A stretch of DNA of 52,461 bases from Oscillospiraceae bacterium (GTDB lineage Bacteria > Bacillota > Clostridia > Oscillospirales > Oscillospiraceae). Shown here one piece after another: positions 34,477 through 34,693 of this stretch (the stretch's first letter is position 1; the number at the start of each line of letters is the position of its first letter). The notes under the pieces were generated by a model, which had not been told where the DNA came from, did not search any database, and saw only the letters and a program-made list of their open reading frames with translations. The DNA lies in assembly GCA_020860545.1 (NCBI GenBank), contig JAJBUC010000094.1, positions 1 through 52,461 on the forward strand, read 5' to 3'. Made by a program: the position numbers and the translations under genes.

Positions 34477-34516
34477 CAAAAATGACGGAGGACTTCGCAT
34501 TGAGCAAAGTCCTCCG
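34477..34516 (-). terminator. Rho-independent terminator following the Cys-rich micro-ORF
   Basis: On the minus strand, CGGAGGACTT-tgctcaatgcg-AAGTCCTCCG forms a 10-bp stem, followed by TCATTTTT. It starts about 36 nt after the micro-ORF stop. Confidence 0.75.
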
Positions 34517-34551
34517 AGATAGAACAGGTTTGAATTTTTGAATTGCGATGC

Positions 34552-34614
34552 TTAGCAGCAGCCGCACAGCTGGCACAGAAGCTGGAAAAGGGAACTGCAA
34601 TCGAAGTTACACAT
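34552..34614 (-). CDS. Micro-ORF encoding the 20-aa cysteine-rich peptide MCNFDCSSLFQLLCQLCGCC
   Basis: AAGGAGG lies 8 nt before the ATG (34614). The stop is TAA. It is flanked by its own promoter (34665-34693) and terminator (34477-34516). It is the C-terminal part of the 105-aa track ORF 34552..34869, whose upstream part overlaps the ileS leader and lacks signals. Confidence 0.55.
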   Translation of the reverse strand: MCNFDCSSLFQLLCQLCGCC

Positions 34615-34664
34615 GGCACAGACCTCCTTGCGTTTTTTAAGTAGCGTCTCGCGAAGACATCTAA

Positions 34665-34693
34665 ATTGTAACCGGTTTGTAACTAAAATGCAA
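34665..34693 (-). promoter_or_regulatory. Sigma-A promoter driving the Cys-rich micro-ORF
   Basis: On the minus strand, -35 TTGCAT (34693-34688), a 17-nt spacer, then -10 TACAAT (34670-34665). It sits back-to-back with the ileS promoter. Confidence 0.55.

Follow-up and report, generated by a model that had tools for sequence, protein, structure and literature searches.

Can a gene of only 20 codons, invisible to standard annotation, be recognized as a gene, and what might its product do? The question is raised by a short locus on the minus strand of contig JAJBUC010000094.1, the 52,461-nt stretch of Oscillospiraceae DNA analyzed here (the window), which belongs to a 1.98-Mb assembly (G000). 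An earlier note on the window had read this locus as an independent micro transcription unit encoding a 20-amino acid (aa) peptide with six cysteines, and we compared the locus (the micro-gene) across related genomes. The comparisons strongly support the reading as an independent gene. Our best explanation as a whole, in which the locus forms a gene of its own, about 180 nt long and predicted to encode a 20-aa micro-protein of a mainly Oscillospiraceae family, appears somewhat probable. The promoter carries a putative binding site of the cell-wall regulator WalR, and the predicted place of the peptide in the cell follows largely from that site.

We searched 401 Oscillospiraceae species genomes in six frames, first with the peptide itself and afterward with profiles, taking E≤1e-4 as a strong match. 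About 27 of the species (about 7%), from about 22 genera, encode a family member, always as a single copy per genome. Two more matches with the same architecture are found in two sister families of the same order. A narrow, hand-made degenerate DNA pattern matched seven species and six metagenome contigs. Its hosts were Oscillospiraceae metagenome-assembled genomes (MAGs), Pseudoflavonifractor sp. Marseille-P3106 and a Faecousia MAG; the few metagenome contigs came from animal gut and other sources, and none of the contigs matched was viral. Every member has the same plan, with an upstream block, a -35 element, a spacer, a -10 element, an inverted repeat, a Shine-Dalgarno sequence (SD), the open reading frame (ORF) and a terminator. 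The order of promoter, SD, ORF and terminator from which an independent unit had been proposed in the window is thereby found in about 30 genomes of other genera.

The family peptides are 18-31 aa long with the consensus MCNFDCxS[LI]WQxLCQLxGxGC-stop. Three cysteines (Cys) are near-invariant, one after F-[DN], one in a mid-peptide Leu-Cys and one at the C-terminus, together with one Gly, and the stop codon comes immediately after the conserved C-terminal Cys. The window peptide does have the six Cys described in the earlier note, but only three of the six positions are conserved in the family; six cysteines are a trait of the window's genus and not of the family. The peptides are hydrophobic (mean GRAVY, the grand average of hydropathy, +0.84) and proline-free, with a net charge of -2 to +1. 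The resulting pattern is that of a hydrophobic, uncharged peptide with a polar Ser/Gln stripe and three fixed thiols. Searching four family members against Pfam and NCBIfam (E≤1-10) gave no match. A collection of 15 billion proteins contains only a 29-aa variant of the family, unnamed, and the sequence words of the peptide occurred in no paper that we found. One literature match to CNFDC proved to be the radical-SAM (S-adenosylmethionine) CX3CX2C motif of an enzyme, unrelated to the peptide.

Is the reading frame itself under selection? In G001, the only congener genome compared, the ORF is intact and differs by a single nonsynonymous change, F10L. Identity to G001 is 100% in the promoter and 98% in the ORF, then drops to 60%, with an 8-nt indel, in the spacer 3′ of the stop codon. 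It is 90% in the terminator hairpin, where an A:T to G:C exchange is compensatory, and 70% in the DNA past the terminator up to the next gene downstream, which codes for a lipoprotein-like protein. The earlier note had said that an ORF broken in close relatives while its flanks are kept would speak against a gene; in G001 the ORF is whole and better kept than the flanks. Across the family, ORF, SD and stop codon are intact in 29 distinct genes. Diversity at the three codon positions of the family alignment is 0.34, 0.23 and 0.42, the third being the most variable, and pN/pS across the family ORFs is 0.44. Read in frame, the peptides have an amino-acid identity of 0.55, versus 0.43-0.44 out of frame. 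The dN/dS and stop-codon comparison suggested in that note points toward a coding ORF, and moderate protein-level constraint is visible.

The features of the unit are collected in Table 1. Its promoter, SD and 20-codon ORF are all present on the minus strand where they had been placed, and the ORF is, as described, the tail of a spurious 105-aa ORF in the ORF list. The hairpin and U-tract proposed as a terminator are there as well, but by terminator scan the stem has 13 pairs, 8 of them G-C, and not 10. A strong hairpin lies 3′ of the ORF in every family member, its sequence differing from genome to genome, and a GGAGG-type SD with matching spacing is likewise found in all of them. The distance from -35 to -10 is 17 nt in the window and in nearly all members. 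Family variants of the -35 are TTGCAa, TTGAAA or TTGACG, and the -10 is TACAAT or TATGAT. The upstream block has the consensus GGAAAAcATTrCAT and is common to 23-29 aligned family promoters as well as to the promoters of genes for CAP-domain proteins; the window's version is a weaker match to this consensus than that of most members. A consensus promoter scan of the window did not call the micro-gene promoter because TTGCAT matches TTGACA at only three of six positions. Judged on the window alone, this promoter would be weak evidence. Other promoter classes were considered and dropped: a sigma-54 reading of the upstream GG...TTGCA has the wrong spacing, judged by eye, and as to SigG-, SigE- and SigK-type readings, the members that lack the direct repeat discussed below have plain TTGACG-17/18-TATGAT SigA promoters. 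The micro-unit falls under no Rfam family.

Table 1. Coordinates of the micro transcription unit, of its neighbors in the window and of the candidate regulatory operon. Positions are those of the 52,461-nt contig unless another contig is named.
Feature	Position	Strand	Sequence or remark
Upstream conserved promoter block	34694..34709	-	reads GGAATTACTTACCA; directly 5′ of the -35
-35 element	34693-34688	-	TTGCAT; direct reading of the sequence
Direct repeat	34683-34666	-	GTTACAA-ACCG-GTTACAA; overlaps spacer and -10
-10 element	34670-34665	-	TACAAT; forms part of the second GTTACAA unit
Inverted repeat	34646..34658	-	GTCTTCGCGAGAC; about +1 to +13 of the predicted transcript
Shine-Dalgarno sequence	34629-34623	-	AAGGAGG; 8 nt before the ATG
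20-codon ORF plus TAA	34614-34552	-	encodes MCNFDCSSLFQLLCQLCGCC; ATG at 34614, TAA 34554-34552
Intrinsic terminator	34478..34516	-	hairpin 34516-34486 with 5-nt loop, then TCATTTTT
ileS leader promoter	34732-34760		TTGACA-17-TAGAAT
ileS T-box leader	34775-34998	+	92.3 bits (Rfam gathering score 93)
Lipoprotein-like gene	33876-34394	-	172 aa
wal-like four-gene operon	G000 contig C34:232-4967		walR-walK-(yycH)-yycI-like

The inverted repeat keeps its position in nearly every member, beginning 5-7 nt after the -10, and symmetric variants of it in the family are GTCCTCGAGAGAC, GTCCCTAAGGGGC, GTTTCCGGAAAC and CCTTGCAAGG. It is unique in G000; in other genomes it is also found in the leaders of CAP genes. 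The RNA hairpin it could form has little stability (-2 to -4 kcal/mol; z averages -0.8), and the folding energy gives no support to a stable 5′ hairpin. The repeat could be either a 5′-terminal stem-loop or an operator.

What might control the micro-gene is suggested by the direct repeat in its promoter. The reverse complement of the repeat, TGTAAC-N5-TGTAAC, is a perfect match to TGTWAH-N5-TGTWAH, the consensus of Bacillus subtilis WalR (PMC9210968). WalR regulons invariably include cell-envelope proteins, above all peptidoglycan hydrolases, and in C. difficile WalR represses an NlpC/P60 gene that carries the box (PMC9210968). The earlier reading of the promoter had found the core hexamers correctly but missed this repeat, which is shared with cell-wall genes. 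A position weight matrix (PWM) built from 23 family promoters, excluding the window's genus, was scanned over the whole G000 assembly. It scored highest (50 bits) at the promoter of a gene for a secreted CAP-domain protein on contig C141 (L003:1495-1535) and second highest (39.8 bits) at the micro-gene promoter. Perfect copies of GTTACAA-N4-GTTACAA number three in the approximately 2 Mb of G000, against about 0.015 expected, and all three are in promoters: those of the micro-gene, of the C141 CAP gene and of a gene for a secreted hydrolase with Cu_amine_oxidN1 and Hydrolase_2 (SleB/CwlJ-type) domains (C38, L086). A fourth copy with one mismatch is also in a promoter (C152:3389), ahead of genes for a 96-aa protein and a double-SH3b protein.

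With at most one mismatch, the repeat is present in all 12 of the other genomes, at 2-10 sites each versus 0-2 for a reversed control, including a genome without the peptide. Behind the sites across genera are genes for SleB-type hydrolases (10 genomes), CAP or LysM-CAP proteins (six genomes) and the 96-aa protein (five genomes), in addition to the peptide; the target kinds seen in G000 turn up in 10 other genomes. The repeat occurs in two registers, the second unit forming the -10 in the peptide and CAP promoters and the first unit in the hydrolase and 96-aa promoters. In every case it covers the -10, the arrangement expected for repression. In G048, G214 and G110 the CAP genes also carry the micro-gene's inverted repeat at +1, and the whole regulatory cassette is common to micro-gene and CAP gene.

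Further observations concern the sites and the genes next to them. The predicted WalR-type regulon spans at least 11 genera (sites, for example, at L070-L099 and L123-L132). One family member (L056, G088:C11) has the repeat in reverse orientation (TTGTAACCGTTTTGTAAC) at the same promoter position, with a poor -10. The protein of 95-96 aa is conserved (MADQSIPLVYKGHPLRRK...VSVQLQLTDPDLKSRDRVVKKSEKDSLYAAMD..., encoded at C152:3433-3723 in G000 and also at L078, L082, L087 and L130); it belongs to no Pfam or NCBIfam family, and its gene invariably follows a TTGACA-17-TACAAT promoter that contains the repeat. Since it is followed in G000 by the double-SH3b protein, which has an NlpC/P60-like motif at the end of its ORF, the 96-aa protein is a candidate partner or regulator of the SH3b wall enzyme. 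Divergent from the C141 CAP gene are a gene for an ArsR/SmtB-family regulator and then one for a heavy-metal P-type ATPase with an HMA domain. A perfect palindrome, ACATATGAACAATGGTTCATATGT, is ahead of the ArsR/SmtB gene and is probably its operator (L003:1606-1630 and 1617-2266).

Does the organism encode a regulator that could bind the repeat? Contig C34 of G000 carries a four-gene operon resembling walR-walK-(yycH)-yycI. The best NCBIfam match of its response regulator is YycF (290 bits versus 225 for the next family), and its 597-aa WalK-like kinase has a transmembrane (TM)-HAMP-PAS-HisKA-HATPase architecture. The third gene, at the yycH position, codes for a 451-aa membrane-anchored protein, and the fourth is YycI-like. 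The operon appears to be a divergent clostridial version of walRKHI. From the perfect consensus match, the wall-hydrolase targets and this operon, we infer that the repeat is a putative WalR-type operator and the micro-gene a member of a WalR regulon. The likeness to known WalR regulons, with their repressed targets such as B. subtilis iseA and pdaC and C. difficile cd630_27680, extends to the tandem TGTWAH-N5-TGTWAH box in the promoter, to the overlap of the box with the core promoter as at repressed targets, to the co-regulation of peptidoglycan hydrolase genes, which here is predicted from the box, and tentatively to the wal-like operon. No 20-aa peptide is described as a WalR target in PMC9210968.

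Several observations weigh against placing the micro-gene under WalR, or against the gene as predicted. About 10 of the 29 family members have no repeat in the promoter, so the putative WalR control would not be universal in the family. The hydrolase genes also have the box over the -10, unlike the upstream activating boxes of B. subtilis, and the direction of regulation is uncertain for this reason. The match of the regulator to YycF is below the equivalog cut-off of 340 bits, which is Bacillus-based; the 451-aa protein at the yycH position has no Pfam match; and the YycI-like fourth gene scores 27.6 bits (E 2.6e-6), just under the Pfam threshold of 29.7. The assignment to WalR depends on a consensus from Bacilli and on what kind of genes the targets are. 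As for the ORF, pN/pS was obtained from 21 codons of related sequences and is only moderate evidence for coding. A search of sequencing runs found the micro-unit in no RNA run. The runs containing the window are long-contig DNA assemblies, the runs with the Pseudoflavonifractor unit are of unknown type with DNA-like contigs of 145-170 kb, and wastewater RNA contigs cover the neighbors of the G110 micro-unit but not the micro-unit. Separately, in run X30, of unknown type, the sole contig on a 2-kb Pseudoflavonifractor stretch is 257 nt long (L036:6414-6670) and covers only the micro-unit, promoter and terminator included; a low-coverage metagenome could yield such a contig by chance, or it could reflect an abundant short molecule.

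The surroundings of the micro-gene bear on how its product is read. It is located, as the earlier note said, between the divergent ileS T-box promoter and a same-strand lipoprotein gene. The ileS leader promoter is back to back with that of the micro-gene, about 40 bp from the micro-gene -35. The T-box leader itself scores just under the Rfam gathering score, and a default 'gathering' annotation would miss it. Downstream, the lipoprotein-like gene is followed by a RarA/MgsA gene; the lipoprotein-like protein has no Pfam family, and its gene adjoins the micro-gene only in this genus, where the comparison is with G001. A TTGACA promoter-like site kept in G001 is directly 3′ of the micro-gene terminator, ahead of the lipoprotein gene. 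Beyond the genus, the flanking proteins form no cross-genus clusters, the downstream genes are unrelated between genera, and the next downstream ORF is on the opposite strand and convergent in about 13 of 29 loci. Ten neighbors fell into ten unrelated Pfam families (HAD, LysR, Mbeg1-like, DUF3810, DUF364, CBAH, APH, Hsp33, a pyridoxal phosphate (PLP) enzyme and DUF2079). Within 1.5-6 kb of the micro-gene, none of about 29 loci has a linked maturase, transporter or receptor gene, in line with the absence of a nearby maturase that had been remarked on in the window.

These surroundings decide against the leader peptide that the earlier note had considered, in which ribosomes stalled at the Cys codons on shortage of cysteine or Cys-tRNA would let transcription run through the terminator and on into the lipoprotein gene. 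The window by itself is compatible with such a leader, as a terminator follows a Cys-rich ORF and the next gene is on the same strand. However, only in the congener is that next gene conserved, and it has the promoter-like site between it and the terminator; in other genera the neighbors are unrelated and about half are convergent. Just three of the six Cys are conserved, while the non-Cys residues F/D, W, Q, L and G are conserved equally. Neither the distance from stop to terminator nor the spacer sequence is conserved, and because the spacer varies in both length and sequence a conserved alternative antiterminator pairing is unlikely (folding covered the downstream 80 nt). We reject a cysteine-sensing leader or attenuator as extremely unlikely because of these variable, often convergent flanks, the Cys codons that are not conserved and the variable spacer; the lipoprotein gene would then not be regulated by the micro-gene. 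It is very improbable, too, that the micro-gene acts through a small RNA of about 180 nt, the ORF being incidental or secondary as in a dual-function RNA. The compact RNA from promoter to terminator with its conserved 5′ element would suit this. Yet all members have a consensus SD and an ATG whose spacing is fixed, the stop codon abuts the conserved C-terminal Cys, and third-position variation with in-frame amino-acid conservation points to coding; the spacer and terminator sequences are not conserved, and there is no Rfam match. A larger, though still low, probability is that the repeat is bound by another OmpR/PhoB-family regulator of PhoP- or SaeR-like type, or that it is shared through descent of the promoters. 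G000 encodes at least 12 OmpR-family regulators, others of which could bind such 11-bp-spaced repeats, and the coding-strand form GTTACA-N5-GTTACA also resembles PhoP- and SaeR-type repeats. The whole cassette shared by micro-gene and CAP gene might also be a promoter duplication. The two registers relative to the -10, at non-homologous genes, argue for an operator instead of shared ancestry, and the perfect TGTWAH-N5-TGTWAH match and the targets, peptidoglycan hydrolases and wall-binding proteins that are the hallmark of WalR regulons, argue for WalR over another regulator.

If a peptide is made, it could belong to one of several known kinds. Very short precursors of ribosomally synthesized and post-translationally modified peptides (RiPPs) exist elsewhere, PqqA and MftA being examples. 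A RiPP precursor, or a thiol-rich peptide that binds metal or serves redox chemistry, with its enzyme or partner encoded elsewhere in the genome, would agree with the three near-invariant Cys, the variable extra Cys and the conserved C-terminal Gly-x-x-Cys, and a metal site formed by an oligomer of the peptide would be compatible with the results. We nevertheless consider this quite unlikely. A radical-SAM enzyme, cyclodehydratase, protease or ABC exporter is linked at none of the approximately 29 loci, the peptide has no division into leader and core, and it matches neither SCIFF, CLI_3235 nor any other NCBIfam or Pfam peptide model; against metal binding, it is strongly hydrophobic and without the polar ligand environment of metallothioneins. 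SCIFF and similar clostridial Cys-rich RiPP precursors are also small Cys-rich peptides of Clostridia, and the window peptide likewise has six Cys. SCIFF has its six cysteines in forty-five residues, whereas the present peptide is under half that length, conserves only three and has no adjacent radical-SAM maturase or leader. Small hydrophobic pheromones and type I toxins are similar to the family in size and hydrophobicity and in coming from unannotated stand-alone genes, and an exported signaling peptide of the SHP/XIP kind or a type I membrane toxin would account for these traits. SHP and XIP, which act with Rgg and ComR, are likewise hydrophobic peptides; their genes, about 17-24 codons long, go unannotated and have promoters of their own. 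Here, though, there is no adjacent Rgg/ComR-type receptor and no conserved neighbor, a LysR-type gene being present at one locus; the peptide has neither a basic N-terminus nor a charged tail and has conserved cysteines; and the operator is of the response-regulator direct-repeat type. No conserved antisense promoter was noticed, the gene is single copy with no phage association, and its operator is common to housekeeping wall enzymes. A pheromone or toxin is therefore distinctly improbable.

We accordingly return to an envelope-associated micro-protein under WalR-type control and outline how it might work. The micro-gene would be transcribed from the SigA-type promoter TTGCAT-17-TACAAT and translated from its strong SD, with transcription ending at its own intrinsic terminator. 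WalR, the response regulator of the WalRK cell-wall homeostasis system, would control it, and because the tandem box lies across the spacer and the -10, binding of WalR~P would be expected to repress it. The peptide, the SleB-type hydrolases, the SH3b-protein operon and the LysM/CAP proteins would form one regulon. Located at the membrane or envelope, the peptide might act, for example, as a small modulator of kinase or hydrolase activity, with its thiols as functional groups. This envelope or membrane association is speculative, but an envelope-associated micro-protein is the most economical reading given the hydrophobic chemistry of the peptide and the operator it shares with wall hydrolases and wall-binding proteins. 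It is a rather unlikely further step that the peptide is itself a component of WalRK, membrane-embedded, thiol-bearing and repressed by WalR~P, which once derepressed feeds back on WalK/YycHI or restrains the hydrolases.

A system that works in such a way is found in Enterobacteria, where the small membrane protein MgrB inhibits PhoQ. MgrB is hydrophobic, its cysteines matter for its function, and its gene stands alone and belongs to the regulon of PhoPQ, a two-component system that governs the envelope. The likeness is an analogy of working only, with no sequence relationship. MgrB, at 47 aa, clearly has a transmembrane helix, with a tail in the periplasm, whereas the present peptide has 18-31 aa and no charged flanks. 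An MgrB-like feedback of the peptide on the kinase is pure hypothesis. To our knowledge, a 20-aa peptide has never been described as a WalR target.

A conserved single-copy micro-protein family in abundant, poorly studied gut anaerobes would be an addition to the catalogue of small proteins. The shared operator provides a first sequence-based prediction of a WalR-type regulon in Oscillospiraceae, with SleB-type hydrolases, LysM/CAP proteins, the 96-aa protein with the SH3b protein, and the micro-peptide, and this prediction places an uncharacterized peptide in an essential cell-wall homeostasis circuit. In Firmicutes the WalRK circuit is an antibiotic-target pathway, and a peptide modulating its kinase or the hydrolases would, if true, be a new regulatory layer. 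Wall turnover could then couple to the redox state of the peptide's cysteines, and gut Oscillospiraceae would have invented MgrB-like logic independently.

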